From Candidatus Nomurabacteria bacterium (GTDB lineage Bacteria; Patescibacteriota; Minisyncoccia; Phycocordibacterales; UBA918), in NCBI GenBank assembly GCA_023898565.1, contig CP060228.1:240594-304593 (forward strand): a stretch of 64,000 nt of DNA, written 5' to 3'. This document shows, in pieces, positions 1 to 21,770 of this stretch. The notes under the pieces were generated by a model, which was given only the letters and a program-made list of their open reading frames with translations, searched no databases and was not told the origin of the DNA. Both the position numbers and the translations under genes were made by a program. Every line of letters begins with the position of its first letter. Positions within the stretch are counted from its first letter, which is position 1.

Positions 1-1042
1 AAAACTCAGTAAGTAAATGCGAACCTCCATAACTCAAAAACGGCACGGTTGTTCCCGTCACTGGCAGCAAACCAATATTCATACCAATATGCACAAAAAA
101 ATGCGCCACAAATAGCATACATACCCCCGCAGCAAACAGACGCTCAAAATTGGTTGCACCATGTACCGCGCTACTGAGCAATCGCCACACCACCAAGCCA
201 AACAACGTAAAAAGCAACAACACACCAATAAGCCCCCATTCCTCAGCGTACGCTGCAAAAATGAAGTCGGTTTCATATTCAGGCAAAAAGAGCAACTTTG
301 ATTGTGTACCATATCCAATCCCCTTACCAAAAAGCTGACCAGATCCGATGGCTACTGTCGACTGATATGCATTGTATCCAGCCCCTTGAATATCTGATAG
401 CGGATCTAAGAACGTCATAATACGCTCTTTTTGATACGGCAAAAACACAAACTGCCACAAAATCCCAAACGCCACCGCGCCGAGTAAAAACACCGTCAGT
501 AAGTGCCGGAGTTTAATTCCTGAAACAAGCACCATCCCCAACCACACAAAGAAAAGAATAATTGCCGAGCCAAAGTCAGGCTGAATAAACACCAGGCCAA
601 AAATACCAAGTGCGTACATTCCCGAGACAATAATGTGTCTGAAGTCACCAATCAGCTCGTGTCGTTTGGCAAAATACTTCGCCAACACAATAATCAATAC
701 TAATTTAGCGGGATCGGATGGCTGGAATGAAAAGAAGCCTAAGTCAAAACGACTTTGCGCACCAAGCGTAATTTCACCAATCATAAGTACCAACAACAGC
801 AAACCAATAGTGAAAAGGTACAAGAAAAAGGCGGTGTTCCCCATTCTCAAAAAACGATAATCAGGCACCATTGCCACTAACAGTGCAATCGTTGCTGCCG
901 CAATCCAAATAAGCTGACGGTTGAAAAATTCATTATCGCCAACATGTGAGTACATGGTGACCAACCCCATGAGCGAAAGGCCAATCACACTGAGAAACAG
1001 CGTTACGTCAAACCCGCCAAAAAATGTTTTGAGTTGTCCCAT
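1..1042 (-). CDS. SEDS-family cell-cycle protein FtsW/RodA (C-terminus beyond window edge)
   Basis: Manual translation of the minus strand from ATG at 1040-1042 gives MGQLKTFFGG...PVTGTTVPFLSYGGSHLLTEF, an open frame to position 1. It is a multi-TM protein with the SEDS signature; it is absent from the ORF track only because it is edge-truncated. Confidence 0.8.
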   Translation of the reverse strand, partial: MGQLKTFFGGFDVTLFLSVIGLSLMGLVTMYSHVGDNEFFNRQLIWIAAATIALLVAMVPDYRFLRMGNTAFFLYLFTIGLLLLVLMIGEITLGAQSRFDLGFFSFQPSDPAKLVLIIVLAKYFAKRHELIGDFRHIIVSGMYALGIFGLVFIQPDFGSAIILFFVWLGMVLVSGIKLRHLLTVFLLGAVAFGILWQFVFLPYQKERIMTFLDPLSDIQGAGYNAYQSTVAIGSGQLFGKGIGYGTQSKLLFLPEYETDFIFAAYAEEWGLIGVLLLFTLFGLVVWRLLSSAVHGATNFERLFAAGVCMLFVAHFFVHIGMNIGLLPVTGTTVPFLSYGGSHLLTEF

Positions 1043-1087
1043 TATCTCATTGTACCCCTCTGGTGCAGCTCCAGGAACTTGCGCAAC

Positions 1088-2467
1088 CTACCGCACTTCT
1101 GCGAAATTAGTTTTCGGCTTAGCAATAATATCAATCTTGGTAGGCCCCGATTCACAAAGTGAAGACGTGATTTCAGCATAAATATCTGCCAAATCGGCAC
1201 CAGTTGGAGCAAAGTAGGCATTAGCCGGCTCACTCGCAATCTGATTGATAAACTGGCGGTCGACTCCAGCACCAAGGCCAATTGCGTACACTTCGATATT
1301 ATCTTTATTCAGTTCCGCAGCAGTTGTGACTGCTTCTGCCACTGCATCTTCATCTCCCGCAGCAGTTGGCAATCCATCCGTCAAAAGCACTAACACTCGA
1401 CGAGCGTCGTTGTTATGCTCCACTGCATTTAATTCGGACGCCGCCAGCGTGAGCGCAGCACTGGTGTTTGTAAATCCAGACTCTTCACTTGAAGCAATCT
1501 GCAAATCCATTAACGCACCAACCACACTATCCCGACTTGCGCCAAGTGGTGAAATCAATGTCGCCTCTGTAGCAAACGTAACAAGCGCAACCTGGTCTGT
1601 ATCTTTAAGCGCGCTCACAAACGTACTGGCAGCCTCTAGTGCTGCAGTCACTGGCTGTGGCGGATCCCCGCCATCATTGTTCATACTACCCGACAGGTCA
1701 ATCGCTACGGCCACATCGGTTGGAATAATACAGCTTTTTACAGTCTTGGCGATTGAGTTTGGCCACGTAAATACAATGTCTTTAGTGCCACGAGCTGGAA
1801 TTGACTCAACGTATGTCTTTGATGCGGTTACCGGAGTGCCTCCCTCATCGAAAATAGTCGCGATTACCTCAACGTCGCTCGCGCCCACTAGTTCGGTATT
1901 TTCAATGGTTACATCAAGACGAGGACTTTCGTCAGCGTCAGTCAGGTCGATATCAAGTGAGCGGAATTGATCACGCGCTACTGAAGCTGGTAACCACAAT
2001 GACGCTGGCTTTAGCGTGAGTGTTGTTTCAGTCACCGCTGTTGCGCCAGTAGTAAAAATCTTCCCTTCAAAAATGGGATAGACACTATTGGGAGGCAGTG
2101 CAATAACACCCTCTCGTGAAGCAAGTATCGTACCGTTGTTTTTGAGCTCTAGCACATATTTCAATTCCGGCACACCGGCGGTTTGATTGGTGTTTTCGAT
2201 ATACGCGACCGAATTATACTGACCAGGCGCAATCTCAAAACTTTGTGCCCACACTATCCGCGGTGGTACTACTGTCGCCGCACAAATCTGCACACAGCCA
2301 CCACCGCAATCCACGCCTGTCTCTGCCCCATTCATCACTCCATCAAGACACGTAGGAGCTTGATAAAAATTAACATAATATGCAAACGCACCCACGAGCA
2401 ACCAAAACAACAAAAAGCCAGAACCATACTGTACTCTTCTTGCCACTGCCCAAGGTCTAATGCTCAT
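1088..2467 (-). CDS. membrane-anchored von Willebrand factor type A (VWA) domain protein
   Basis: N-terminal TM segment; VAIDLSGSMNNDGG...ALVTFATEATL...VLVLLTDGLPT matches a VWA MIDAS-type motif (DxSxS...T...D). Confidence 0.7.
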   Translation of the reverse strand: MSIRPWAVARRVQYGSGFLLFWLLVGAFAYYVNFYQAPTCLDGVMNGAETGVDCGGGCVQICAATVVPPRIVWAQSFEIAPGQYNSVAYIENTNQTAGVPELKYVLELKNNGTILASREGVIALPPNSVYPIFEGKIFTTGATAVTETTLTLKPASLWLPASVARDQFRSLDIDLTDADESPRLDVTIENTELVGASDVEVIATIFDEGGTPVTASKTYVESIPARGTKDIVFTWPNSIAKTVKSCIIPTDVAVAIDLSGSMNNDGGDPPQPVTAALEAASTFVSALKDTDQVALVTFATEATLISPLGASRDSVVGALMDLQIASSEESGFTNTSAALTLAASELNAVEHNNDARRVLVLLTDGLPTAAGDEDAVAEAVTTAAELNKDNIEVYAIGLGAGVDRQFINQIASEPANAYFAPTGADLADIYAEITSSLCESGPTKIDIIAKPKTNFAEVR

Positions 2468-2543
2468 GTGCCTTATTGTATCAGGTAAAACAAAGCGAAG
2501 AACGTTGCCCTATGCACAAAACTGCCACCGTCTGATAATTTTG

Positions 2544-5156
2544 CTATATCTCCTCGACCGTTCCAGTCGTTTCAATAACAGCCGTGTCAGTAAATATAGT
2601 AGAACCATCAACCGCGACACAGCGGAGTATAAATTCTGATTTGTTATTGATTGGTCCCACATTACTTAGCGTTCCGCTCGTGACTAAACCGCCGGAGTAA
2701 ACTGTTTGAGGTCCGCCTAAAGACGGCCCTTCAATTTCACAACTGCCAATATACCCGGCACCATTAAGATCCCAGTGTAGATCAATAGCATTGCCCGCTC
2801 GTACCAAACGATCCGGATCAGTTGTTAGTGAAATGTCTGGATCAGGGTACCCAACATAAATTTGGCGCATAAAAATATTGTCATCTTCGTTTGATTCAAG
2901 AACATCATCATCAGCATCAACTAAAATCTCTACCATATGTGGGCCAGGCGGAATATCGCTGCCCAGGTTGATTGATTGTGTTCCGGTATCGCTACCGTTC
3001 ATTATTGAGGGAATAGATACGTTTACAACCTCATCAAAACCTCCACCGCCATAATCAATGTTGAATCTTAACACTGACTCGAGCGCCTCAGTAGTTCCAT
3101 CATTAAAAATATTGTAATTAATAGTGAAGTAGTCATAATGGCCTGTCGTCCGATCAAAGGTAACTGAAGTTGCCAAGCTGCCAACATCAGCAGAAAGGTT
3201 AGGAGCTGGTGGAGCTTCCGAAATGGTAAACGGATATGAGGCGCAATTGTTCGACTCATCGAGTTCTGATACGCTATCAAATCCAAAATCAAGATCGACT
3301 GCGTCAGCGCAGACGTACAAGACATGCGAGCCGACCACTGCCGTTGACCAAGTGGTACTAGTCGAATATGTCATGCCATTGGCCAAACGACCCGTATTAC
3401 TATCACCATGGACTCGGCCAATGTTACTAGTAGCACAGTTTGGATTATCAACGCAAAATCGAACTAAACTGTTCAAACCATACGACCGAACACCATTTAA
3501 ACCACCAGCAAATAAATACTGTTGATTGCCGTACTCATAACTTACATGTGCATAGCCAGAGGTTTTTCCACCAGCATGCCCCACCAATTGAGCACTGTAC
3601 GGCACCGACACATCAACAGCGTTGACTCCGGCAAAACCAGTCACGTTGCCAACAAAAGCATAGCGATCATTGTGAGAAATGCCTCCTCCATACAGCAAAT
3701 TTGAATTCGTAGAGAAGTCACTGAAGTCGATACGATCAAGTAAGATAAGGTTAGCAGGATCGCTTACATCAACCACCGCGAAATCATCGGATCCATTGAG
3801 CGATATGTACAGCGTGTCATCCCCAAATAAGTCAATTTTGTTTACACCAACCGGGCTAAGGTCCGGCAAATCCAGCTCATTAACCAAGGCCAGAGAATTC
3901 AAGTCGTATACTTTTAGCTTTGTTCCTCCTGACACTGGAACCGATAATTTATACAAAAAACCATTGCCGACCGTGAAATTTGGTACGGTATCTGCTTCAG
4001 TAATAGAAGCTGTTTTGACTGGGTTAACTGGATCAGTGATGTCGAAAACCTCTAGATTTTCCATCGGGAAACCAGCATTACCATTGGCTGTTCCTGTAAA
4101 TAAGTAACTTTCGTCAATCTTTAGCACCTCAAATGAAGGCAAGGCTGTGGTAAACGTATTAACTAACACTGGATTAGTTGGATTTGAAATATCATAAATT
4201 TTGACATTATCGACATTTCCGCGCGCACCGATATAAGCGTAATTGCCCCGCACTTCAATCTGATTTGGATAATCACCGCCTGGCACTACCACACCGCCAA
4301 CTTTTATAATATTTTCCGGATCTGAAACATCATAAATACGTAAACCTTCTGCAGAAATAGTGTAGACCGCCGCATACAAGTAATTTCCGACCTGGACCAT
4401 GTCATACACACCACCATCCGCATACATATTTTCTGACTCACTTGCCACTCGATAGCCATAGGTATTTTCTGTTGTCATTGAGTCTGCAATATTGCGAATA
4501 TCTGCACTAAAGGTAATTTGCTCTCCCTCTTGCAGCAAACCAACCACAGAAACGTTTTCTACCACTATATCCGGGGCTGTAAAAACAGGACCCAGACAAG
4601 CACTAGCTGAACCAGTAACCCCAGGAGCATTACCACCATCATTACCAAAATCAATCCAACCAACTACCGAAGATCCCCATGCCCAACCACTCCAGTCACA
4701 AGAATTATCAACCGCTACGCCATACGGCGCACCATCCAAGGCCGTTCCAGAAAGACTTATCCAACCGTCCCAGCCGCCACTGTTCACTCCGGCGGCTACC
4801 GCAGACAATGCTCGCGCCCATCCAGTAACTACGCCTGTAGCACGATTTAATTGAGCCACGCAGCTGCCGCTTGGACAACCGCTTAAATCACCTCGGTCAA
4901 AGCTAATCCAACCAACATGTTCGCTCCAAGCATAGCCTGAGATTGTTCCTAGTGTGTTTACCGTTACGCCATAGTCTGGGCTAGCAGGTACATCTAGACT
5001 ATTCATCGAAATCCAGCCAATGTTTTCACTCCACGCGTAGCCAGACACATTATCGGTTGCAGCTGCCTCTACCACAATAGGTTGAACAGCAGCGACAAGA
5101 GTTGCCAGCAAGAAAGCCGCTGGAAAAAGAGTCGTAAATATTTTGGTAAGAGACAT
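2544..5156 (-). CDS. giant secreted repeat protein (N-terminal GYAWSE-x-GWISF repeats, CARDB-like segment, LVIVD-type beta-propeller repeats)
   Basis: Signal peptide; repeated SGYAWSENIGWISMNS / SGYAWSEHVGWISFD / WDGWISLSG motifs; repeated [LVI]x[IV][YF]D[IV]SDPxNP units (LRIYDVSDPENI, VKIYDISNPTNPV, LEVFDITDPVNPV, FAVVDVSDPANL) typical of LVIVD repeats. Confidence 0.65.
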   Translation of the reverse strand: MSLTKIFTTLFPAAFLLATLVAAVQPIVVEAAATDNVSGYAWSENIGWISMNSLDVPASPDYGVTVNTLGTISGYAWSEHVGWISFDRGDLSGCPSGSCVAQLNRATGVVTGWARALSAVAAGVNSGGWDGWISLSGTALDGAPYGVAVDNSCDWSGWAWGSSVVGWIDFGNDGGNAPGVTGSASACLGPVFTAPDIVVENVSVVGLLQEGEQITFSADIRNIADSMTTENTYGYRVASESENMYADGGVYDMVQVGNYLYAAVYTISAEGLRIYDVSDPENIIKVGGVVVPGGDYPNQIEVRGNYAYIGARGNVDNVKIYDISNPTNPVLVNTFTTALPSFEVLKIDESYLFTGTANGNAGFPMENLEVFDITDPVNPVKTASITEADTVPNFTVGNGFLYKLSVPVSGGTKLKVYDLNSLALVNELDLPDLSPVGVNKIDLFGDDTLYISLNGSDDFAVVDVSDPANLILLDRIDFSDFSTNSNLLYGGGISHNDRYAFVGNVTGFAGVNAVDVSVPYSAQLVGHAGGKTSGYAHVSYEYGNQQYLFAGGLNGVRSYGLNSLVRFCVDNPNCATSNIGRVHGDSNTGRLANGMTYSTSTTWSTAVVGSHVLYVCADAVDLDFGFDSVSELDESNNCASYPFTISEAPPAPNLSADVGSLATSVTFDRTTGHYDYFTINYNIFNDGTTEALESVLRFNIDYGGGGFDEVVNVSIPSIMNGSDTGTQSINLGSDIPPGPHMVEILVDADDDVLESNEDDNIFMRQIYVGYPDPDISLTTDPDRLVRAGNAIDLHWDLNGAGYIGSCEIEGPSLGGPQTVYSGGLVTSGTLSNVGPINNKSEFILRCVAVDGSTIFTDTAVIETTGTVEEI

Positions 5157-5293
5157 ATGATTACATTATCCCTAGCATTGTACCACCAGCGCAACACAGC
5201 GCTCAGCAGACTATCCACCCAGGAAACACGCCTTGCATGTGTGTGAGTACCTATTACAAACAAAAACCCGCCACATTCGTGGCAGGGAGCTCA

Positions 5294-5719
5294 TCACTTG
5301 AGCTCAACACCGTCCCAGGGGCGATGATCCACCCAGACGTTGCCCTTGCGGGTCAAAATGAGATTTTGGCAGCTGTTCGTCACATGAAGCGTGCCGTCGG
5401 CGGACAGTGTGCCTTTTGCCGGAGTGAAGTTCCGGCAGGCCGGATTGTTCTTGCTGCGGAAGTTGATTTGGCCTTCGAATCCATCAGCGGTTTGCTTGCT
5501 GATCTCGAGCGTCATCCATCCCCGCGCATTTCCATCTCGCCAGTTGCCGTTCAGCTCACTAGGGAGCGTCACCGCTTGGCTGCCAGAGCCCAGCTTCACC
5601 GCCTGCAGGCCGGAGCCAACAGCCGATGACCTGGTTTGAGTGGTCGTACACGCCGCCAGAAACAGCGAGAACGCGACACACATGAAAGCGGCAAAAAGAC
5701 CGCGGAACTTGGTTGCCAT
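5294..5719 (-). CDS. small lipoprotein, hypothetical
   Basis: Signal peptide with lipobox (FLAAC); preferred over the overlapping antisense plus-strand ORF. Confidence 0.5.
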   Translation of the reverse strand: MATKFRGLFAAFMCVAFSLFLAACTTTQTRSSAVGSGLQAVKLGSGSQAVTLPSELNGNWRDGNARGWMTLEISKQTADGFEGQINFRSKNNPACRNFTPAKGTLSADGTLHVTNSCQNLILTRKGNVWVDHRPWDGVELK

Positions 5720-5830
5720 GACTTTACCCTCCTTAGCAGGTGTAATTAGGCACTTGCACTATAACACACATTACGATACTAGCAATAGCTTCCCTTGCTG
5801 TACACAAGATATCAGCTGCCACTTCACACA

Positions 5831-5855
5831 AAAAAACCGCCCTAAGGCGGTTTTT
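5831..5855 (-). terminator. intrinsic terminator downstream of 5S rRNA
   Basis: aaaaaaccgccctaaggcggttttt hairpin with a U-tract on the minus strand. Confidence 0.6.
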
Positions 5856-5873
5856 AGGAGTATTAAAAGCTTT

Positions 5874-5984
5874 ATGTTGGCGCCTACCTACTCTTCCGCT
5901 TGCGCAGTACCATTGGTGGTAGAAGACTTTACTTCCGTGTTCGGAATGAGAACGGGTGTACCCCTTCCCCCAAAGCACCAACAT
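5874..5984 (-). rRNA. rrf: 5S rRNA
   Basis: Reverse complement reads TGTTGGTGC...CCGAACACGGAAGTAAAG...GCGCCAACA, with helix I pairing and conserved 5S loop motifs. Confidence 0.85.
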
Positions 5985-6046
5985 AAAACTTTCAAATTAA
6001 TCGTCGCTACGCTCGTGTGAAATGGTCCCGACAAAAGAACAAGGAA

Positions 6047-6118
6047 GAGGGGGAAGCAGGATTTGAACCTGCGACCTCTGGTGGTGAACCAGTGCTCTGC
6101 CAAACTGAGCTATTCCGC
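6047..6118 (-). tRNA. tRNA with non-canonical anticodon arm; anticodon probably CAC (Val?), identity uncertain
   Basis: Reverse complement GGCGGAATAGCTCAGTTTGGCAGAGC ACTGG TTCACCA CCAGA GGTC GCAGGTTCAAATCCTGC TTCCCCC T shows canonical D and T arms (GGTTCAAATCC). The anticodon stem has only 4 bp plus an A.A pair, position 37 is C, and there is a C3.C70 acceptor mismatch. No CCA is encoded. Confidence 0.55.
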
Positions 6119-6131
6119 CCGTTGTCGGGAA

Positions 6132-6208
6132 ATGGTCGGAGTGACTGGATTTGAACCAGTGACCTCTAGCTTTTTACACTAGCGCTCTACCAGGCTGAGC
6201 TACCCTCC
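6132..6208 (-). tRNA. tRNA with encoded CCA; anticodon reads AAA (Phe?), identity uncertain
   Basis: Reverse complement CGGAGGG TA GCTC AGCCTGGTA GAGC G CTAGT GTAAAAA GCTAG AGGTC ACTGG TTCAAAT CCAGT CACTCCG A CCA. It has a C1:G72 pair and a G6.A67 mismatch; U33-AAA-A37 sits in a 7-nt loop. Confidence 0.55.
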
Positions 6209-6287
6209 GTTTGACCATTTCACACGATCGTATTTGCATATTCAAGAAGTTTCTTCGCTACTCAAAATCTATACATGATGTACAGCG

Positions 6288-9532
<3,245 letters not shown>

Positions 9533-12874: not shown

Positions 12875-13087
12875 GATTTTATAGAAATCAATGGATAAAC
12901 TGCAGGCCCGGCGGGTAGATATAAAAAATACCCCTGACGGGCTCGACCTTTCCACACTAAAAAATAGTTGGACCTCGGCCGGCGGCGAATGCCTTTACTC
13001 CCCTTGAGGAACCAGCTGTCATGAGCCTGCGTGGAGACACTATACCAAAAAAATTAAAATTGCCAAGCGCTACGCGCTTGACAAAAG
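12875..13087 (-). promoter_or_regulatory. rplJ 5' leader (candidate L10 autoregulatory leader)
   Basis: A ~210-nt untranslated region lies between the upstream terminator and the rplJ start. In other bacteria this leader binds the L10(L12)4 complex; that role here is inference. Confidence 0.3.
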
Positions 13088-13110
13088 AACGGCCCGCTGC
13101 GCGGGCCGTT
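13088..13110 (-). terminator. intrinsic terminator after pgsA-like gene
   Basis: aacggcccgctgcgcgggccgtt. Confidence 0.5.
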
Positions 13111-13112
13111 AA

Positions 13113-13694
13113 CTATAGAAAATACCGCCTGAACGTAGCCGCCCGATTAAGTCCCCATGAGGCAAGGACCAATCCCAGCGAGACCATCGCCAGCTCATCG
13201 GGCGCCACAAACGACACCAGAGAGGGATACAACGCCACGATCATCAAGCCAAACAGCACGGCCGTTTTGGTTTTTGAAAGCAGTGTCACCGGCTTGGTAG
13301 CTGGTGCACGTACCCCGCGCATCGCCGCTGCGATATCAAACCGCCGCTGGTAGGTGTTGTCGATGTCATACAGCAAGTTGACCACAAACAACACACTGAG
13401 CCAAACCGAACCAGACGTAATGGCAAGACCAAGCAAAAACGGATTGGTGAAGCACTTATCCGCCAGCGGGTCGATTACCGCACCAAGCGGCGTCACCATC
13501 CCCTGCCGTCTCGCCAGCCAGCCATCAAGCCAGTCGGACAGACCAGCATACACGACTGCCAAAAACAGCACGTGTGTGCCGGCAAGCCACCACAAAGGCA
13601 CAGCCACCCCCGCCACTGCTCGACTGAGCGAAATGGCATTGGGTAGATTCCACTGCCGCGACGACCCTTGCCAGTACATCTCTGCCATATGCAT
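13113..13694 (-). CDS. pgsA: CDP-alcohol phosphatidyltransferase (PgsA-like)
   Basis: The motif SDWLDGWLARRQGMVTPLGAVIDPLADK matches D-x2-DG-x2-AR...G-x3-D-x3-D. Multi-TM protein. Confidence 0.8.
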   Translation of the reverse strand: MHMAEMYWQGSSRQWNLPNAISLSRAVAGVAVPLWWLAGTHVLFLAVVYAGLSDWLDGWLARRQGMVTPLGAVIDPLADKCFTNPFLLGLAITSGSVWLSVLFVVNLLYDIDNTYQRRFDIAAAMRGVRAPATKPVTLLSKTKTAVLFGLMIVALYPSLVSFVAPDELAMVSLGLVLASWGLNRAATFRRYFL

Positions 13695-13736: not shown

Positions 13737-13838
13737 TCTATCCTATTTTTATTTTTCTGCCTAGGGAGCCGCCATCCAGTGCCTGCAAAACCATCACTGC
13801 AATACAAAGTATTACTAATACTGGGAGTTTTTTATTCA
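13737..13838 (-). pseudogene. orphan 5' fragment of the small-protein paralogue family
   Basis: MNKKLPVLVILCIAVMVLQALDGGSLGRKIKIG* is a 34-codon fragment. Its first ~25 codons and the upstream region 13796-13925 are near-identical to 15566-15690. Confidence 0.5.
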
Positions 13839-13900
13839 TAATCTCAATGGCACTCCGCGCACTGTCATAATTTGTTGAACTCTATCTTTGTTAATTGTAT

Positions 13901-14452
13901 TTACTCTATGAACTCGAAAGAGTTAAGAAAATCAACAAATGCATCCTTTTGTCTTACCTGGCCAGATAAGTGTATCCAGTACTCATCGCTAATCAAGATA
14001 TAGTAATTTTCAGTTGGACCACCAATACCCTGATCATTTACCGCAAATAATGCAGTTCTATTTTTGAACTCCACCTCACTAATAACCACTCCACGGGCCT
14101 TCATTTTTGCATGCGCGCTTTCGATCCAGCTCTTTGGAGTAATATTTACCAAAATTGCATGTAAATTATAGGGATCAATAGGCTCAATAGCCATATTGAA
14201 CAAACTGACACTACTACCAAACGCTGGTTCCCTCACCTCCCATTCCTGTGGATACTCAAACTGAAATCCCCAGTCTTCATTGCGATAAATATTTGCATCG
14301 GTTGTCTCTATTTCAACAAATTCTTCCGGGGACGTTGTGGCGGTTTGTTTGGTGTCTTTCTCAGCTGCTGAATCAGATGGTTCATGCCACAGCCACCAAG
14401 CAGCCCCAATGAGTACCAAAACCACTACAAAAGTTAAGAGTGACTTATTCAT
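13901..14452 (-). CDS. small membrane-anchored protein, paralogue family member 1 (conserved YRNEDWGFQFEYP ... SFEFIE)
   Basis: N-terminal TM anchor; shared motifs with 14548-15075 and 15664-16212. Confidence 0.6.
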   Translation of the reverse strand: MNKSLLTFVVVLVLIGAAWWLWHEPSDSAAEKDTKQTATTSPEEFVEIETTDANIYRNEDWGFQFEYPQEWEVREPAFGSSVSLFNMAIEPIDPYNLHAILVNITPKSWIESAHAKMKARGVVISEVEFKNRTALFAVNDQGIGGPTENYYILISDEYWIHLSGQVRQKDAFVDFLNSFEFIE

Positions 14453-14547
14453 GTTTCAGGTTTGTAATTAATTGGTTGATAATGTGCGTTATTTATTCTA
14501 TATCATTCGCTGCCACCACATCATTTTTGCCCACTTGTCACACAGGT

Positions 14548-15075
14548 TTACTCGATGAATTTAAAGGTGTTGAGAACAAGCTGGAGCTCTGACGCGTACT
14601 CATCTTGCACACTCAAATTTATCCAATATTCATCATTAATCAGTACAAAGTATTCTTGCGTCGGTATTGAAGACATAGTAACAGAGGAATAACTCCACCA
14701 TTCCCGACCACCTATTACTATCTTTGACTCAAATTTCTTTCTCAATCGCTCCCCCCATTCTTTTGAGCTTATGAAAATACGTAATGGGGAAAAGGCTAAT
14801 TTTTCATCATCAATTAAACCAATGTTTAGTAGGGCGGCCTTATTAGAAGAAACGGGATCTTGTAAATTCCATCTTTTGGGATACTCAAACTGAAATCCCC
14901 ACTCTTCGTTTCTATAGATGTGGTTCTCGTTTTCAGCAATCTCTTCAGGCTGCTTCGTTTCCACAATGTCTTCTGTGGCCTGCTCGCCCGTCTTAATAAA
15001 AAGCCCGTGCCAAGCTGCCAATCCGACCGCGACCGCAATACAAAGTATTGTTAATACTGGGAGTTTTTTATTCAT
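14548..15075 (-). CDS. small membrane-anchored protein, paralogue family member 2
   Basis: MNKKLPVLTILCIAVAVGLAAWH...NHIYRNEEWGFQFEYP...NTFKFIE; start taken at M16 of the track ORF. Confidence 0.6.
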   Translation of the reverse strand: MNKKLPVLTILCIAVAVGLAAWHGLFIKTGEQATEDIVETKQPEEIAENENHIYRNEEWGFQFEYPKRWNLQDPVSSNKAALLNIGLIDDEKLAFSPLRIFISSKEWGERLRKKFESKIVIGGREWWSYSSVTMSSIPTQEYFVLINDEYWINLSVQDEYASELQLVLNTFKFIE

Positions 15076-15602
15076 CAACAAATTCAAAGGACTCAACAAC
15101 ACCAGCAAACAACTCTTCATAATGGCCGTTTGTGCCCAAAATCATTTTATAATCTTTAATGGGAAGAATTATCGCTATCTCTGTATCACTTTTCCAGTCA
15201 TAAATATACTTAACCCCAGAAACTCCGTCGACTACAATCAATTCTTCGGTCTTGTCTATGTTATTAAATGATTTTTCCGCAAAACTGTGTGTAACAATGT
15301 TTACCAGCACTGGGTCACCGTGATGTAATTCTTGATCAGGATAGAGAGTCACATTAAACTCTGAACTGCCACTTTGAAACGGGATCTTGTAAATTCCATC
15401 TTTTGGGATACTCAAACTGAAATCCCCACTCTTCATTTCTATAGATGTGGTTCTCGCTTTCAGCGATCTCTTCAGGCTGCTCCGTTTCCGCAATGTCTTC
15501 TGTGGCCTGCTCGCCTGTCTCAATAAAAAGCCAGTGCCAAGCTACTAGTCCAGCCACAACTACAATACAAAGTATTGCTAATACTGTGAGTTTTTTATTC
15601 AT
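15068..15602 (-). pseudogene. frameshifted/chimeric member of the paralogue family
   Basis: The N-terminal 82-codon ORF (15354-15602) shares ~220 bp of near-identical DNA with paralogue 2 (14850-15068 vs 15378-15603). It ends in a stop and continues in another frame (15068-15523) encoding a divergent C-terminal domain that ends ...SFEFVDE. Confidence 0.5.
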
Positions 15603-15663
15603 AATTTCAATGGCACTATGCGCACTGTCATAATTTGTTGAACTCTATCTTTGTTAATCACAT

Positions 15664-16212
15664 CTATTCTATGAACTCGAAAGATTCAATGATCTGATTG
15701 TACTCCTCTTCATATTTACTAATTCCAGTAATATCAATCCAATACTCATCACTGACCAAGACTAACGTGAGAATCGCTGGACGACTCCACCCATCTTTAT
15801 CATATGTCTTGTAGGCTGATTTCCCGTCTAGAAAAATCTCTTCAAAAACAACTCCCCTAGCCTTCATTTTGGTCATGGCACCTTCTATCCAGTTTTTGGG
15901 AGTAATGTTTATCGTGATGCCATTGGCAGGCGCTGGACCAATTGCCATATTGAATAAACTCACACCACTCACGAATGCCGGTTCCCGCACCTCCCATTCC
16001 TGTGGATACTCAAACTGAAATCCCCAGTCTTCATTGCGATAAATATTTACATCGGTTGTCTCTATTTCAACAAATTCTTCTGGGGACGTGGTGGCAGTTT
16101 GATTAGTGCCAATCTCAACCTCAACTGCTGAATCAGACATTTCGTGCCACACCCACCAAGCAGCACCAATGATTACCAAAATCAATACAAAAGTTAAAAG
16201 TGACTTACTCAT
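15664..16212 (-). CDS. small membrane-anchored protein, paralogue family member 4
   Basis: MSKSLLTFVLILVIIGAAWWVWHE...YRNEDWGFQFEYPQEWEVREPAF...ESFEFIE. The start overlaps the stop of the upstream giant gene by 8 nt. Confidence 0.6.
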   Translation of the reverse strand: MSKSLLTFVLILVIIGAAWWVWHEMSDSAVEVEIGTNQTATTSPEEFVEIETTDVNIYRNEDWGFQFEYPQEWEVREPAFVSGVSLFNMAIGPAPANGITINITPKNWIEGAMTKMKARGVVFEEIFLDGKSAYKTYDKDGWSRPAILTLVLVSDEYWIDITGISKYEEEYNQIIESFEFIE

Positions 16213-18979
16213 ATTTCAGTTTTGCAATTAACTGACTGATAATGTCGTTTATTTCGTCAGCGTCACTGTTATTCATTCCCCGACCAGCCCGTCGCTCTAC
16301 CAAACGGTTAAGATTTTTTAAAATAGCCGATGCTGCGCGCTTACGATTTTTATTATAATGTTTCTCGGCCAACTTCAAATTAGCTTCTAGTCGTAACCGA
16401 AGAAATCGATTTTGAATCTCAGCTTCATCAATTCGTTCATTTAATAGACTAAATAGCGGCTTTGTATTTAGTGGAACCTCGACCTCCTCAATCACTTCTC
16501 CGCCGCCACTCACCTCTACCGCAAAACCTTGTGGGGGAATTTCAGACACTAACTCATCCTTAGCAAGCTCAATAACTGTTTGACCCGTGTTCAGCACAAG
16601 TGAATACTGACTCCCAGAAGTAGCTGTTTCATCAGGCGCCACCTCAAATATGTAGACGCCATCTTTCAGTTCTGTGAAGTACACCCGGTCAATTGACTGA
16701 CCATCGTGACCGCGCTCAATTTCTGAGTAATACATTACCCCCGGAACTTCTCGGATATACTCCAAATCAGATGGGATGATATCCTCGTATGACAACGTCA
16801 AGCCATCAGGGTCGGTGACAATCAGGTCAACCGGAGAAAAGGTGCTGGCAGAAGAAAATCCGTGCTGGTGAATACGTCTGCGTTCAACAAAATCAGAATC
16901 TTTTTCATAATTTACACTTTCCCCTTGAATCACTCCAAGATCTTCAGACGATGCGTTCACCACATCGTACCCTTCGCTTTCACCAACGTACATTGCCACA
17001 TGACTGATTCGAGAATCATCCCCGAAGAATAATGCGTCCCCCGGCTCCAACTCCCCCACCACCTCACTTGACTGCACATCACCGAACATGCCATCAGCAG
17101 TTACATTGGCCACATAATTGTCATGCGCTTCAGTTGGATCATTTGCCTTGTTAAAAGCCCAATAAATCAACCCCGAGCAGTCGATTCCAGGCGCAACTCT
17201 TTCGTAATTGTAATAATGATTCTTTTGATAGTAGCCTGAAACTATCTCATGTGGATCAACGAAATAACCCTCGATGTAGTTCCAACCACGGGAACCTAAC
17301 TCATACACATCTCCTGGATCTGCTTGTGACTGAACCGCTGCCGCTAGTAATTGTTTTGCCAACTCCGCAGCCCTCTCACCCAGCGTGAGTTCAGGAGTCG
17401 GCTCGGGTTCAGGCTCTGGTTCTGGTGCAGACTGCACCGCTACTGTCACCTGGCAATTATTCGAGCCGCCAACACTAGTGAACATAGCAGTGTAGGTTGT
17501 CGTTTCCGTCGGCGATACGACCAATTCACCAGTAGGATCAACCGCGCCTATGCCAGTATCAATCTCGACCGATGCCGCATGCTCGCTGGTCCAAGAAAGA
17601 GTTGTCGTGCCACCAGCAGCAATTGTCGCTGGTGCTGCATACATAACACACGTTGGTGCTGGTGGATTCACCTCAATAAAATCATCCGCCGTAGCGCAAC
17701 CCGGATCAGCGGGAAAATCAATAAGACCATCAGCATCATTATCGATCCCATCGCTACACTGTGCCAGCGGCAACTCGACCAATTGTGCTGCTGTGCGTGG
17801 GAATTCGTCAAACAAACCAAAGCCATTCAATTCATAGGCTTGATCGCAGAAATCATCAGCATCTTCATTGACACAGCCTTCCCCCACCTCATCAAAGGTA
17901 TCCCAATAATTACCACCCAGCGAAGCGTGCGAGAAAGCCACTTCAGTAGCCCACTCCGGCACATCAACATGCGTGTCGTTGTTGATAAAATTATTACCAT
18001 ACAGCCAGCTGATTGATTCAGCTTGCGCGTACGCAACCTTCGATACTGCTGACCGTACTATGACTGCAAAATTATGAACAAGATTTTTTAGCTGCTCACT
18101 AAGCGCAATCTTGCGCACTTGATGTGCAGCACCAAACGTAGGGATCGGCTCATCACCTGGACCACCAGCGTCGCTCGAAGCAACTACCACCACACCCGTA
18201 TTCCCGTCACGAAAGGCGTTGTTTGTAACGATGTTGCCTGCTGCATTATCTGTCTGTAGCGTAAGAGCAATATTTGAGCGCGCAATATCATTGGCAGTAA
18301 TTGTATTGCTGCTTGATAGATCAATTGATACCCCCGTAGTCGATTCGGCGATGCGATTCTCTTTCACCACACTACCGCTAACCGCATTCAAATCAATACC
18401 AACAGCAGCATGCTCAATGAAATTATTACGTATCTCAAGATTTGCAGCATTTTGCGCACTCACCGCAGTCCAAAGTGGAGCATCACTACTCCCGCGCACC
18501 ACATTCCCTTCCACCAAGCCACCAATCTGATCGAAGAAGTGGATGCCACTAAACGAAGACTCAATGACATTGGACTTGGCCCGGCCACTATCTGCTTGAT
18601 CAAAGATAATTCCACCACCAATCAAATTAAGGTTTTGAACAGCCACACCCTCGACGCTGTTCACTCGCACCGCCCATTTCTCGCCTGACATATCATCGAT
18701 ATCTATAGTATGTCCGGCCCCCTCAAGGGTAGCTGCCGAAGTAGTGATGATAATTGGTTCAGAAATGTCTGTAGTCAGCGTGCACGTACGATTCGTCGCC
18801 TCCCAGTTGCCAATGGACCGACAACCACCGCCAGTTGCATTGATTTCATAAAATGCCTGGGAGGCTGCAAATGACAGCGCCCAGGCACAAACAGAAACCA
18901 TGATTGCGACAAAATATGACACTCTGCTATGACCGATCATAGTCATTTTGCTGTTTGAGTAATTCGGCTTTGTGGCCAA
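16205..18979 (-). CDS. giant secreted protein: right-handed beta-helix (PbH1) repeats + NlpC/P60 peptidase domain + C-terminal coiled coil
   Basis: Signal peptide present. PbH1-like repeats are IRNNFIEHAAVGIDLN / VKENRIAESTTGVSIDLS / ITANDIARSNIALTLQ. The NlpC/P60 catalytic signature is IDCSGLIYWAF ... GDALFFGDDSRISHVAMYVGE (Cys and His). A PEPEPEPEP linker is present. The start may be M12/M14. Confidence 0.7.
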   Translation of the reverse strand: MATKPNYSNSKMTMIGHSRVSYFVAIMVSVCAWALSFAASQAFYEINATGGGCRSIGNWEATNRTCTLTTDISEPIIITTSAATLEGAGHTIDIDDMSGEKWAVRVNSVEGVAVQNLNLIGGGIIFDQADSGRAKSNVIESSFSGIHFFDQIGGLVEGNVVRGSSDAPLWTAVSAQNAANLEIRNNFIEHAAVGIDLNAVSGSVVKENRIAESTTGVSIDLSSSNTITANDIARSNIALTLQTDNAAGNIVTNNAFRDGNTGVVVVASSDAGGPGDEPIPTFGAAHQVRKIALSEQLKNLVHNFAVIVRSAVSKVAYAQAESISWLYGNNFINNDTHVDVPEWATEVAFSHASLGGNYWDTFDEVGEGCVNEDADDFCDQAYELNGFGLFDEFPRTAAQLVELPLAQCSDGIDNDADGLIDFPADPGCATADDFIEVNPPAPTCVMYAAPATIAAGGTTTLSWTSEHAASVEIDTGIGAVDPTGELVVSPTETTTYTAMFTSVGGSNNCQVTVAVQSAPEPEPEPEPTPELTLGERAAELAKQLLAAAVQSQADPGDVYELGSRGWNYIEGYFVDPHEIVSGYYQKNHYYNYERVAPGIDCSGLIYWAFNKANDPTEAHDNYVANVTADGMFGDVQSSEVVGELEPGDALFFGDDSRISHVAMYVGESEGYDVVNASSEDLGVIQGESVNYEKDSDFVERRRIHQHGFSSASTFSPVDLIVTDPDGLTLSYEDIIPSDLEYIREVPGVMYYSEIERGHDGQSIDRVYFTELKDGVYIFEVAPDETATSGSQYSLVLNTGQTVIELAKDELVSEIPPQGFAVEVSGGGEVIEEVEVPLNTKPLFSLLNERIDEAEIQNRFLRLRLEANLKLAEKHYNKNRKRAASAILKNLNRLVERRAGRGMNNSDADEINDIISQLIAKLKYE

Positions 18980-19415
18980 CCAGATTAGAAAGGAGCTGCA
19001 AAAATGTAGCTACAGCAGAGAGAGCTAGAAGTAATACCGGGAAGACTGCGTACGGTGTAATGAGGTAAAAGAAAATCACTACTGCTGCAAGCCACATGCC
19101 CATGCACCACGGACAGTCAAACAGATCAGCTAACGTGCGGCGCGGGCCAGTCTTCGGCTTTTGAAGCTCGTATCCTCGCCCCACCTTCACCACATCCCAA
19201 AACTGTTCACGGATAAACTTAGTGATGCCATCGTACACAAACAGCCGAGTCAGACGCCACGTTGCAAGCGTGATAAGGACAAAGTCAACCAGCGTGAGAT
19301 CGACCAGTGGAATCCGAGCTTCGGTCTCTAGAATAATCGCTCCCATGATTATCAAAACTGCAAAAAAAACGGAGAAAACAAAGTTCCAAAAATATTGATC
19401 AGTAATACGAAACAT
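18927..19415 (-). CDS. DUF1360-like membrane protein
   Basis: Multi-TM with a CPWCMGMW motif; start taken at M25 of the track ORF. Confidence 0.55.
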   Translation of the reverse strand: MFRITDQYFWNFVFSVFFAVLIIMGAIILETEARIPLVDLTLVDFVLITLATWRLTRLFVYDGITKFIREQFWDVVKVGRGYELQKPKTGPRRTLADLFDCPWCMGMWLAAVVIFFYLITPYAVFPVLLLALSAVATFLQLLSNLVGHKAELLKQQNDYDRS

Positions 19416-19600
19416 AAGACTATTGTACACCTTCGCCACCTGTACCGATAAGCAAAATAAACAAGAGCACACCAGCGACGACCGCAATGAAACTAAAGAG
19501 AAAGCGGTAGAAGGTTTTGTTGGCGAGTTTCTCTGATATGTTTTGGCGGAAGGCGTTTTTACGTGGTGGCATAGTGAGTACAGTATACCAAATCAAACGC

Positions 19601-19637
19601 AAAACCGCCGGAAACCCTTCGGGTTTCCGGCGGTTTT
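19601..19637 (-). terminator. intrinsic terminator
   Basis: aaaaccgccggaaacccttcgggtttccggcggtttt. Confidence 0.6.
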
Positions 19638-19688
19638 GCTTCCTTTCTCCCCACTCCGTCACCGCCAACCAAAATCACTCAGATACAC

Positions 19689-19766: not shown

Positions 19767-21770
19767 CTAGTTAACGATTGTAACAACAGATGTTCGGTAG
19801 TCAGTCACTGGAAGTGTTGACTGTGTCTGATCTGGAGTTGTGTCCTGATCCTCATCGAATGAGAGTGAGTTAAGAACAAGACGAGCTGCTGTGTTAGCTA
19901 CACCAGGAACGTATGTAACGGTGATAGTAACAGTTTCAGTCTCACCTTCAGTGATTTCGAAGAATCCACCCACTTCATCAGCTGATGAAGTAAGAACAAC
20001 CGTTGATGTACCAGCTGATACTGTAGCACCTGAACCGTTCACGAGTGACCATGAAGTTGAGGTTGCAGGATCAGTTGAAAGGTATACATCCTGTTCGAAC
20101 GCAGTTACTTCTACTTCGATTTCGAAAGTAGCGTAGTCATCAGTAGCACCGTCGTTAACTGTTACGTCAGCGTCAGTAGAAACTGGAGACACGTCGATAC
20201 CTGCAGTTCGAAGAGTGTGCGCATCACCAGTAGCAGCACCAGAAAGCTGGCTGTCACCAAGATCATCAGCACCCTCAGCGCTTACGATTGTTGTATCAAG
20301 AGCGTCAATAGAAGCCTTGATAGTTGCACCTTCGCTTGTTGAAGCGATTGACTTGAAGCGAACCATAAGTTCTGCTTCTACACGATCACCAGCGTCGATA
20401 ACCACATCACCGTCTACATCAAATGTAAGAACAGCTGGGATAACGAGGCTTGAACCGTTAGCTACAGACACATCGTCGATTGTTACACCGTCGATAACAA
20501 GTTCTACATCATCCACAAGTGTGCTGTAAGCAGCAAGTGTAGTTGAAGCGTTGATCTTGATTGAGTTAAGTTCAATGTCGTTTACTGAATCATCAGTGTC
20601 AAGGTCAAACACGAATACAGTGTACCAGTCTGACTTCTTATCATCATTTACCTGAAGGGTTGAAGCATCAGGATCGTTTGATGAGGTCTTAGCCTTAAGT
20701 TCATCTTCTGAACCAGCTTCATCAACAGTGAAAGTCTGCTCACCATCAGTTCCAATGTCATCCATTGAATCTTCAGTTGTAGCAACACCATCAGCATCGA
20801 AGAAACGAACAGCTACTACACCAACAGTCCAAGTGGTCAATTCTTCTGTATCAAGACCAGTCTGTACTGTTGCAGCGATAGTAATTTCAAGCTCTTCATC
20901 TTCCATACCTACGATATGAAGACCTGAGAAACGAAGTGTACCTTCATCTTCATCAAGGTAATCATCTTCATCGTCAGCATTTTCTTCAGCAACCTTGTCG
21001 CCATCTACCCAGAGAGAGATAGTTTCAAAAGCGTCCCATGGACGTACTGATGAAGTATCAGTCTCAGCCTGTCCGAGAAGCTGTACATCGATGCGTGAGA
21101 TTTCAGCATCACCATCAGCGAACTCTACAGTTGCTTCTGCGATTTCTGCATCTTCAGCACCTTCTTCGAGCTCATCATCTGAAGCTGAGTCCATTTCGAA
21201 CTTGTCGAGTGAAGCTTCACCTGAAAGTTCCATGTCTTCATCTTCGTCCATGTCTTCATCTTCGTCCATGTCTTCATCAGTGTCTACTACTGGAGCAGCT
21301 ACACAGAGGCTGTTAGCCTTAGCACGTGTACCTGGACCAAAGTAACCTGTTGGGTTAACAAGGTTTGCTGGTGAAAGAACCTCTGAACGGTACTTTACCT
21401 GAAGCTTTGAAACTGCTGCTGCGGTAGCTGGACCGTAGTATTCAGTTTCCATACCAGCTGAACCAGCACCTTCTACTGCCACGCGAGTGTCAGCATCAGC
21501 GTTGAGGAACATCTGGAGCATCTTTACATCTGCACCGGTAGCACCTGTTGAAAGGTCACGGGTCCATGTGTAAGGACATACACCTGCTGCTGTAGTAGCT
21601 GCACCAGTCTGTGACTGAAGTGCTGCAACCTGCGCGAGCAAGTCATTGATCATCTTCTGTAGATCTTCAGTAGTCTGCGCCTTTGCTGTTGAAGCAAATG
21701 CAGTGAAGATCATAGCTACTGCTACAAAAGCTACTGAAAGCTTTGAAGCAATGTCTTTCGTGTTAGTCAT
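19767..21770 (-). CDS. secreted cell-surface protein with N-terminal peptidoglycan-binding-like domain, acidic DEDMDEDED repeats and Ig-like beta-sandwich domains
   Basis: Signal peptide; TGATGADVKMLQMFL...YYGPATAAAVSKLQ matches the PG_binding_1 pattern (G..G.DV..LQ..L ... G..T..AV..FQ). Confidence 0.6.
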   Translation of the reverse strand: MTNTKDIASKLSVAFVAVAMIFTAFASTAKAQTTEDLQKMINDLLAQVAALQSQTGAATTAAGVCPYTWTRDLSTGATGADVKMLQMFLNADADTRVAVEGAGSAGMETEYYGPATAAAVSKLQVKYRSEVLSPANLVNPTGYFGPGTRAKANSLCVAAPVVDTDEDMDEDEDMDEDEDMELSGEASLDKFEMDSASDDELEEGAEDAEIAEATVEFADGDAEISRIDVQLLGQAETDTSSVRPWDAFETISLWVDGDKVAEENADDEDDYLDEDEGTLRFSGLHIVGMEDEELEITIAATVQTGLDTEELTTWTVGVVAVRFFDADGVATTEDSMDDIGTDGEQTFTVDEAGSEDELKAKTSSNDPDASTLQVNDDKKSDWYTVFVFDLDTDDSVNDIELNSIKINASTTLAAYSTLVDDVELVIDGVTIDDVSVANGSSLVIPAVLTFDVDGDVVIDAGDRVEAELMVRFKSIASTSEGATIKASIDALDTTIVSAEGADDLGDSQLSGAATGDAHTLRTAGIDVSPVSTDADVTVNDGATDDYATFEIEVEVTAFEQDVYLSTDPATSTSWSLVNGSGATVSAGTSTVVLTSSADEVGGFFEITEGETETVTITVTYVPGVANTAARLVLNSLSFDEDQDTTPDQTQSTLPVTDYRTSVVTIVN

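Follow-up and report, generated by a model that had tools for sequence, protein, structure and literature searches.

A conserved, mobile two-gene cassette of Patescibacteria that encodes a predicted exported NlpC/P60 endopeptidase and a membrane-anchored PsbP-fold partner

We analyzed a stretch of 64,000 nucleotides (nt) from a Candidatus Nomurabacteria bacterium (GenBank assembly GCA_023898565.1, contig CP060228.1, positions 240,594 to 304,593 of the forward strand), referred to here as the window and numbered from its first letter. Within it, the gene of a very large exported protein with an NlpC/P60 peptidase domain (the giant) is followed by a tandem array of genes for small membrane-anchored proteins (the partners, P1 to P5). 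It represents a two-gene cassette that is conserved and mobile in the candidate phyla radiation (CPR)/Patescibacteria, and enzyme and small protein very likely belong together functionally, and probably physically, and travel jointly. The role that we tentatively favor for the partner is that of an immunity-like, membrane-tethered inhibitor, which would bind the hydrolase and restrain it from its presumed target, peptidoglycan. The genes and domains of the locus are as follows (aa, amino acids; ORF, open reading frame; E, expect value; pLDDT, predicted local distance difference test score).

16205-18979, minus strand: giant exported multidomain NlpC/P60 protein, ORF of 924 aa from a TTG start at 18979
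17930-18682, minus strand: right-handed parallel beta-helix (NosD/pectin-lyase-like), about aa 100 to 350 (Pfam NosD, E 1e-16; Beta_helix, E 8e-10)
17690-17764, minus strand: acidic double-disulfide repeat CSDGIDNDADGLIDFPADPGC, aa 406 to 430 (NCBIfam NF033662, E 8e-8, below the cut-off)
17432-17662, minus strand: Ig-like beta-sandwich, aa 440 to 516, then a PEPEPEP linker (AlphaFold2 pLDDT >90, all-beta over residues 1 to 77)
16868-17383, minus strand: NlpC/P60 (C40) domain of predicted D,L-endopeptidase type, aa 533 to 704
17177-17179, minus strand: codon of the predicted catalytic Cys601
17000-17002, minus strand: codon of the predicted catalytic His660
16955-16957, minus strand: codon of the polar third residue, Asn675
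16478-16855, minus strand: conserved beta-sandwich after the catalytic domain, aa 709 to 834 (AlphaFold2 model; 42 to 75% identity in homologues)
16208-16465, minus strand: C-terminal four-helix bundle, a FIMAH-like tail (weak FIMAH match), aa 839 to 924
15664-16212, minus strand: P1, intact, 182 aa, with transmembrane (TM) anchor, acidic linker and type-A PsbP-fold ectodomain
15068-15602, minus strand: P2, type-B partner, present as two ORFs (82 and 151 aa) because of a frameshift near 15376
14548-15075, minus strand: P3, intact divergent partner, 175 aa, whose ATG overlaps the P2 stop
13901-14452, minus strand: P4, intact partner, 183 aa, the copy used for the structure model
13738-13839, minus strand: P5, remnant of 33 aa with the anchor only, at the end of the second duplication copy described below

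The true start of the giant is probably the ATG at 18940, which yields 911 aa and agrees with the start annotated for the 95%-identical locus L021; from it, a typical signal peptide is predicted (MIGHSRVSYFVAIMVSVCAWALSFAASQA, ending in ...ASQA and cleaved before F). The stop codon of the giant overlaps the start of P1 by 8 nt (ATGAGTAA). A preliminary description of this stretch, made by a model from the letters and their ORFs, had proposed an exported beta-helix/NlpC-P60 protein of 924 aa whose stop overlaps the start of the first paralogue. The ORF, the Pfam matches and the signal peptide bear out the protein, with 911 aa as the likelier length, and the overlap is there as described.

The gene pair recurs well beyond this genome. 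Homologues of the small protein (37 to 44% identity) lie directly 3' of NlpC/P60 proteins of 694 and 643 aa, which share their C-terminal 485 aa with the giant at 42 to 43% identity and have different N-termini. Scans of genomes and metagenomes yielded 41 unique loci. Upstream DNA of 1.5 kb or more was available for 26 unique loci, 4 of which were found via the giant. A giant is encoded directly upstream in 20 of the 26 and is fused to the partner in 1; when the 4 giant-found loci are left aside, 17 of 22 remain linked (16 with the giant directly upstream, 1 fused). Two of the 26 (L028 and L033) carry, one gene away, a beta-helix giant with a C39-like peptidase domain, and three have no giant, one of them coding for a single-domain protein (L037) and two for multi-domain proteins. 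The search in the reverse direction agreed: we looked up four giant homologues on long contigs, and each has one or two family members after it (E 1e-38 to 1e-64). An overlap or short gap between the giant and the small gene is found again in about 20 other loci. The preliminary description had made its interpretation depend on an association of the small-protein family with hydrolase genes, and the close family is indeed tightly linked to NlpC/P60 giants in both directions. Locus L026 holds at 145-5385 an uninterrupted ORF of 1747 aa that runs through a Kelch propeller, an NlpC/P60 domain, a beta-sandwich, a hydrophobic segment and three PsbP_2-type domains; it is either a natural fusion of enzyme and partner or the product of a sequencing error that deleted a stop codon.

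The linked loci come from sources labeled Nomurabacteria, Kaiserbacteria, Saccharibacteria, Paceibacterota and Wolfebacteria, and the neighbors of the cassette change from lineage to lineage. Ribosomal proteins L10 and L7/L12 are encoded nearby in our window, whereas the cassette adjoins an IS110 transposase in L058 and a Y1 transposase in L004, and stands in a restriction-modification/PemK neighborhood in L057. In L060, the conserved ribosomal-protein superoperon is interrupted between secY and adk by a giant and two small genes (4001-7274). The family counts as rare: a search among 1.8 billion representatives gave 54 clusters at E ≤ 1e-10. The wider family is large, with 556 representatives at E ≤ 1e-3. 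Distant relatives with two to seven tandem PsbP_2-type domains and no NlpC/P60 gene nearby were seen in L012, L014/L054, L015/L056, L049 and L053; these multi-domain proteins come from metagenome-assembled genomes (MAGs) labeled Pacearchaeota and Gammaproteobacteria. Since such distant members have no NlpC/P60 neighbor, the link to the hydrolase is a property of the sub-family and not of the whole domain family.

The giants of the different loci agree at their C-terminal ends and differ at their N-terminal ends. Their C-terminal 485 aa are conserved at 40 to 50% identity, while the N-terminal modules consist of beta-helix, Kelch, SH3, LamG, SLT or unknown domains; the Ig-like domain is also kept in L001 and L004. 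The sole catalytic swap that we saw is the C39-like peptidase of L028 and L033, where a Peptidase_C39_2 match takes the place of NlpC/P60 (L028, 246-4948; L033, 2-5555). A beta-helix is present in L028 and was not detected in the 5'-truncated ORF of L033. Both loci have a conserved ORF of 361 aa after the giant and then one or two small family genes. Seven giants (L009, L011, L013, L025, L027, L029 and L041) end in a dockerin-like tail with the pattern GNGQPMxSYxDVNxDGxxDxxIHxxT...IKGxDSxRIVP. The dockerin-like tails mostly pair with type-B partners (L025 and L027 being ambiguous), and the FIMAH-like four-helix tails pair with type A. This pairing could mark a docking site, or it could merely reflect shared ancestry.

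Judged from its sequence and models, the giant is an enzyme with intact catalytic residues, predicted to cleave the stem peptides of peptidoglycan. Its Pfam NLPC_P60 match scores 36.4 bits against a cut-off of 23 (residues 590 to 669), and the giants of related loci exceed the cut-off as well (7/7). The preliminary description had held that its proposal would fail if the Cys/His pair were missing on closer alignment; C601, which lies within a DCSG motif, and H660 are in fact invariant in all 34 giant homologues. Position 675 is polar throughout these 34 sequences (N in 25, E in 3, S in 3, H in 2 and Q in 1). The active-site residues align with the catalytic residues of the structures 2hbw and 2evr, the domain has a papain-like alpha+beta fold, and its nearest structural neighbors are autolysins of Gram-positive bacteria. 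The AlphaFold2 model of residues 440 to 924 has a pLDDT of 92. Scans with Pfam and NCBIfam found no PAAR, VgrG, LXG, WXG or Rhs markers in the giant, and no recognizable wall- or membrane-anchoring domain in the mature protein from which the signal peptide has been removed.

The small proteins could be assigned a fold. The AlphaFold2 model of P4 (pLDDT 79) comprises a TM helix (residues 3 to 23), a disordered acidic linker (24 to 50) and an alpha/beta domain (53 to 183), the latter an alpha/beta sandwich of PsbP topology. A Foldseek search with this model placed PsbP-family structures in the top eight ranks and also recovered Tsi3, EagT6, DcrB and Mog1p. At the sequence level, the best family is Pfam PsbP_2 (PF18933), to which no function is attached. 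It matches the N-terminal part of all copies (E 7e-4 to 3.5e-6), from the anchor over the linker to the first strands and no further; P1, P3 and P4 score 20.1, 23.3 and 22.0 bits against a cut-off of 27, and the N-terminal fragment of P2 scores 27.6. Elsewhere, L026 reaches 49.5 bits, and homologue P0007 has a precomputed PF18933 assignment. The nearest structural neighbors of Tsi3 itself are 3hlz, Mog1p and cyanobacterial PsbP (PMC3792639). The Foldseek ranking, the PsbP_2 matches and these shared neighbors together indicate that the family consists of a PsbP/Mog1-fold domain on a membrane tether, a fold common to Tsi3, the lipase immunity protein TplEi and the cytoplasmic Eag chaperones. The preliminary description had recognized no function in the family, a view that the fold assignment now supersedes. 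The TM helix has a lysine in front of it and an acidic linker and ectodomain behind it, so that by the positive-inside rule and the acidic ectodomain we predict an N-in anchor with the domain facing outward; this is the arrangement, with the domain on the hydrolase's side of the membrane, that had been supposed earlier. The pattern scan was done on alignment A2, the wider alignment A3 being too diverse. NCBIfam gave only subthreshold noise on the small proteins (e.g., T7SS_Rv3446c at E 0.001 to 0.04), neither Pfam nor NCBIfam holds an immunity family that fits them, and they match no PADLOC and no PHROG family.

A family-profile hmmsearch of the window retrieved the five partner ORFs and nothing else (E 1e-70 to 1e-13), which argues against chance matches. 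The preliminary description had counted four to five tandem paralogues, and the number is right, although only three copies are intact, since P2 is frameshifted and P5 is a stump. Its motif YRNE(D/E)WGFQFEYP is found in all four full-length copies; the C-terminal SFEF(I/V)E that it gave for each of them is restricted to P1 and P4 (SFEFIE), P3 ending in TFKFIE and P2 in SFEFVDE. Part of the array has arisen by a segmental duplication of two copies, about 1760 bp apart and with 84 to 89% nt identity at their flanks.

15554-16254: copy 1, with the giant 3' end, P1, the spacer and the start of the next gene (repeat families D2, D3, D4 and D6)
13791-14494: copy 2, with a relic of the giant 3' end, P4, the spacer and the P5 stump

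Because the duplicated segment took in the 3' end of the giant, a relic of the giant's last codons stands upstream of P4. The paralogues resemble each other in their heads and differ in their bodies. P1 and P4 share 78 to 95% nt identity over the first approximately 240 nt and 43 to 70% thereafter (85 to 90% for the head of P4 and about 55% for its body). P2 and P3 share 82 to 93% and then 27 to 51%, the P2 head being 92% identical to the P3 head. The P2 frameshift sits exactly where the homology to P3 ends, a coincidence that points to a recombination junction, with an assembly error as the alternative; P2 itself appears to be either a pseudogene or such an error. Its body is of type B, the subtype that adjoins many giants of other lineages. 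The ratio of nonsynonymous to synonymous substitution rates (dN/dS) is 0.07 to 0.5 in every segment of the paralogues, with dS saturated in the bodies. These ratios suggest that the array varies by cassette exchange under purifying selection rather than by detectable positive selection. The earlier characterization of the paralogues as diversifying thus stands for the swapping of cassettes by recombination and falls for positive selection. The GC content is 0.40 in the array, against 0.473 in the giant and 0.472 in the window.

The array also turns over between closely related strains. At this chromosomal site, where the shared order is DUF1360, giant, small gene(s), CDP-OH transferase, L10 and L12, contigs with a 95 to 100% identical giant carry one, three or at least four partner genes in differing order. 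L016 to L019 have one small gene with a P1-type body. Of the three in L020, one combines the P1 head with a P4 body, another is P3-like, and the third joins a new head to a P1 body. The array of L021 begins with a P4-type body followed by a P2 head, and that of our window has four genes and a stump. Throughout the sister strains, conserved heads are joined to swapped bodies, and a P1-type body is present in every complete array. The same signature is seen in the independent lineage of L060, whose two tandem small genes are 98 to 100% identical over the first 300 nt and 40 to 64% identical after that. Fusions of A and B partner domains occur as well. In L061 (1996-5172) and also in L062, the giant is frameshifted between the beta-helix and NlpC/P60, and two intact small genes follow; this layout is shared by at least two independent assemblies, and the DCSGL motif is retained in the downstream frame.

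The first gene of the cassette encodes a Sec-exported multidomain protein, a predicted cell wall D,L-endopeptidase, in which a variable N-terminal surface-binding module, here a beta-helix, precedes a conserved core of Ig-like, NlpC/P60 and beta-sandwich domains and then a tail. The second gene, translationally coupled to the first, encodes a type II membrane protein; an acidic linker of some 30 residues is predicted to hold its PsbP/Mog1-fold domain on the outside of the cell. In our proposal, the partner would bind the hydrolase at the surface of the producer and stop it from cutting the producer's own wall, and the variable module would steer the enzyme to a foreign wall, be it that of a host or of a competitor; varied N-terminal modules are expected if diverse foreign surfaces are targeted. 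At the locus studied here, the partner gene was probably amplified by unequal recombination between repeats. Of the resulting array, three copies are intact, one is frameshifted and one is a stump, and the additional ones would serve as variant or orphan partners. The evidence that leads us to an inhibitor comprises the gene order and translational coupling, the fold shared with Tsi3 and TplEi, the outward topology, the shuffled arrays of variable copy number, the A+B fusions, the persistence of partners beside a damaged giant, the variable targeting modules and the mobile, accessory distribution. That the cassette is, furthermore, a self-contained, horizontally mobile weapon of episymbiotic CPR bacteria, made of an aimed endopeptidase and a membrane-tethered PsbP-fold immunity family in strain-specific arrays, seems possible to us but on the whole unlikely.

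A number of observations weigh against the putative role of an inhibitor. The PsbP/Mog1 fold is a general protein-binding scaffold, used by Eag chaperones, PsbP, LpqN and DcrB. A profile of 29 family members retrieved nothing from all PDB sequences at E ≤ 10, so that, at the level of sequence, the search against Tai/Tsi immunity families suggested in the preliminary description came back empty, and there is no sequence-level link to Tsi3, the Tai proteins, IseA or any solved protein. The paralogues give no signal of positive selection (dN/dS <1 in all segments). The catalytic core is conserved while the partners vary, and no diversity of "toxins" matching that of the partners is thereby demonstrated. 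Neither genes of a type VI secretion system (T6SS) or type VII secretion system (T7SS) nor other delivery genes lie near the locus within the window. An ORF that joins the enzyme to three partner domains, as in L026, would be self-defeating for a pure antidote; the covariation of tail type and partner type speaks for a partner that docks on the tail and not for one that plugs the active site; and an inhibitor tethered to the membrane would have no obvious way to shield a wall from an enzyme that diffuses. Inhibition and docking are nevertheless compatible, as a tethered inhibitor could also hold a latent enzyme at the surface.

Docking might alternatively be the whole function, and this is the principal rival, which the last of these points favor. 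The membrane-anchored PsbP-fold protein would then hold the signal-peptide-cleaved hydrolase at the surface of the producer, perhaps via the C-terminal tail, and might also activate it, for controlled action on the producer's own wall during growth or division or at the site of host contact; we regard both variants as possible but rather doubtful. Such an arrangement would parallel FtsEX with CwlO, PcsB or RipC and NlpI with MepS. Translational coupling implies a complex near 1:1 stoichiometry, the cleaved giant has no wall or membrane anchor of its own that we could recognize, the FIMAH-like tail goes with type A and the dockerin-like tail with type B, L026 unites enzyme and partner domains in one chain, and Mog1 and the Eag proteins use the same fold in adaptor or chaperone roles. 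However, a simple anchor is not expected to vary in copy number, order and body beside an enzyme that is 95 to 100% identical, nor would two intact copies be expected to persist beside a frameshifted enzyme. The sporadic, mobile cassette does not look like a core division function, and the correlation of tails with partners may come from shared ancestry alone. Less probable still is that the proteins do not interact directly, the small ones being general extracytoplasmic envelope proteins of PsbP_2 type (compare LpqN, DcrB and Mtc28) that are merely co-transcribed in an array of neutral duplications. Many members of the wider family are multi-domain proteins (two to seven repeats) with no giant nearby (L012, L014, L015 and L053), L037 is a single-domain member without a giant, and purifying selection acts throughout, all of which would fit. 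Mere membership in a shared pathway, though, falls far short of explaining why adjacency with overlapping start and stop recurs in about 20 independent loci and in all four reverse tests while the other neighbors change, and the pair travels as a unit and has a Rosetta-stone fusion in L026.

Two further explanations concern the origin and delivery of the enzyme, and we consider both highly improbable. According to one, the giant is a polymorphic-toxin or contact-dependent effector delivered by a T6SS, T7SS or type IV secretion system (T4SS), with cognate and orphan immunity genes. The immunity-like array downstream, the Tsi3 and TplEi fold of the partner and the cataloging of both NlpC/P60 toxin domains and PsbP/MOG1 domains in such loci (PMC3482391) speak for it, but the signal peptide is of the plain Sec type, the PAAR, VgrG, LXG, WXG and Rhs markers were not detected in the giant, the neighbors code for ribosomal proteins, FtsK, RecA and CDP-OH transferase, and variability at the N-terminus with a conserved catalytic core is the opposite of the pattern of such toxins. 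The preliminary description had likened the locus to polymorphic-toxin and immunity arrays; array turnover between near-identical strains and the Tsi3/TplEi fold uphold this likeness, while the reversed architecture and the absence of delivery genes nearby do not. The other explanation, of similarly slight probability or a shade less, is a phage-derived module, in which a tail-associated lysin or depolymerase would be accompanied by small superinfection-exclusion or holin-like genes. The Ig-like and NlpC/P60 parts match PHROG families of virion structural proteins and tail lysins (E 3.5e-13 and 3.8e-10), and a beta-helix combined with a lysin is a common design of tailspikes and tail fibers. 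These matches span single domains only, however, no phage genes lie near the cassette here or in related loci, the small proteins have no PHROG or PADLOC family, and the giant has a Sec signal peptide. Two other candidates were dropped, namely a T4SS-associated hydrolase of the CwlT/PrgK type (no T4SS genes in the neighborhood, and no link in the paper on Patescibacteria T4SS) and a prophage lysis module (no phage genes nearby).

The giant and the array are flanked by the following genes.

18927-19487, minus strand: DUF1360 membrane-protein gene (Pfam DUF1360, E 7e-21)
13113-13694, minus strand: CDP-alcohol phosphatidyltransferase gene, a syntenic flank in sister strains

If the giant begins at 18940, the 3' end of the DUF1360 gene overlaps its start by 14 nt, and the DUF1360 gene is for this reason probably the first of the operon. 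The order DUF1360-giant is kept in the sister locus L021, and DUF1360 is absent from the cassette in other lineages; the gene is local context, outside the conserved cassette. The CDP-alcohol phosphatidyltransferase gene is probably the last of the transcription unit. Terminator-like hairpins at 19599-19639 and 13060-13110 bracket the stretch from DUF1360 through the giant and the array to this gene, and none of comparable strength lies inside, suggesting a single transcription unit. The hairpin at 19599-19639 has a perfect 19-bp stem (GCAAAACCGCCGGAAACCC-TTC-GGGTTTCCGGCGGTTTTGC), is terminator-like on both strands and stands between the DUF1360 gene and the gene of an acidic protein of 667 aa. 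The latter (19767-21770, minus strand), two genes upstream of the giant, has at its N-terminus a hydrophobic segment that resembles a signal sequence, and contains a long acidic D/E/M repeat, DEDMDEDEDMDEDEDME. It weakly matches PG_binding_1 (E 5e-4) and a PHROG endolysin family, and may be another wall-associated surface protein. A protein of 870 aa with CARDB and LVIVD repeats (2544-5156, minus strand) is probably a large surface protein. Other neighbors in the window are the ribosomal proteins L10 and L7/L12, FtsK, RecA and the CDP-OH transferase.

Little is known of how CPR/Patescibacteria breach or remodel walls, their own or those of their hosts, and the cassette makes a concrete, testable candidate: the catalytic residues of the enzyme are intact, it comes with a cognate surface partner, and near-identical strains differ naturally in partner copy number. 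Literature searches on NlpC/P60 in CPR and on PsbP_2/PF18933 returned no description of this pair or cassette, and no paper linking NlpC/P60 enzymes to CPR/Patescibacteria or to PsbP-like partners. Homologous cassettes occur in MAGs labeled Saccharibacteria (L004 and L010). Since this is the one CPR group for which the literature that we found has genetically tractable members, the hypothesis is open to a test by deletion. If the partner is an inhibitor, it would be a new structural solution for the control of NlpC/P60 hydrolases in envelopes of monoderm type; if it is a dock, it would show how a genome-reduced cell keeps a secreted enzyme at its surface. If the cassette is a weapon, it would be, as far as our searches show, the first effector-immunity system described in Patescibacteria and bring a new immunity family for NlpC/P60 enzymes.

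Several known systems invite comparison. Exported NlpC/P60 endopeptidases are reported to attack the walls of other organisms without specialized injection in Photobacterium (PnpA), Rothia (SagA) and Trichomonas (NlpC); they are much smaller than the giant. We know of no dedicated neighboring partner or immunity gene for these enzymes. The Eag/DUF1795 chaperones (EagT6 and SciW) are encoded beside the protein that they bind, which may be true of the partners too, but they are cytoplasmic, have no TM anchor and hold the N-terminal TM helices of PAAR effectors, whereas the partner is itself anchored by a TM helix and its domain is predicted to face outward, and the giant has no PAAR, Rhs or comparable N-terminal region. 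In polymorphic toxin systems, the N-terminal trafficking region is conserved and the toxin domain at the C-terminus varies (Zhang et al. 2012, PMC3482391). The giant reverses this pattern, while an array of downstream immunity cassettes reshuffled by recombination has its equivalent here in the head/body mosaics and the variation of order and copy number.

Closer in arrangement are the wall-directed pairs of the T6SS. In Tse3-Tsi3 of Pseudomonas aeruginosa, a muramidase and its periplasmic immunity protein, the structural neighbors of Tsi3 (3hlz, Mog1p and PsbP) are the top matches of our model. The differences are that no sequence similarity is detectable, that the enzyme here is a predicted cysteine endopeptidase and not a muramidase, that it has a Sec signal peptide in a CPR host with no T6SS in the 64-kb window, and that Tsi3 is periplasmic whereas the partner is TM-anchored. 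CPR bacteria are generally regarded as monoderm. The Tae-Tai pairs (Tse1-Tsi1 and Tae4-Tai4) likewise consist of a papain-like peptidase of NlpC/P60 type and a protein encoded downstream and located in the compartment of the enzyme, and arrays of immunity genes occur among them; Tae enzymes, however, are small single-domain T6SS cargo, as opposed to a multidomain, Sec-exported protein of about 900 aa, and Tai proteins have other folds. Of the features by which T6SS pairs are recognized, the locus shows adjacency and probable co-transcription (8-nt overlap) and does not show sequence homology to immunity families or, across the window, linkage to a T6SS. From a monoderm, Bacillus subtilis, IseA (YoeB) provides the example of a proteinaceous inhibitor of NlpC/P60 D,L-endopeptidases (LytE, LytF and CwlO). 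IseA is secreted, stress-induced and not encoded beside its targets, and it was absent from the fold matches of the small protein. Given the lack of T6SS linkage and of homology to immunity proteins, and the reversed variability relative to polymorphic toxins, the locus is not a member of those families. By analogy, it would work most like the wall-directed effector-immunity pairs Tse3-Tsi3 and Tae-Tai, or like the inhibition of LytE by IseA.

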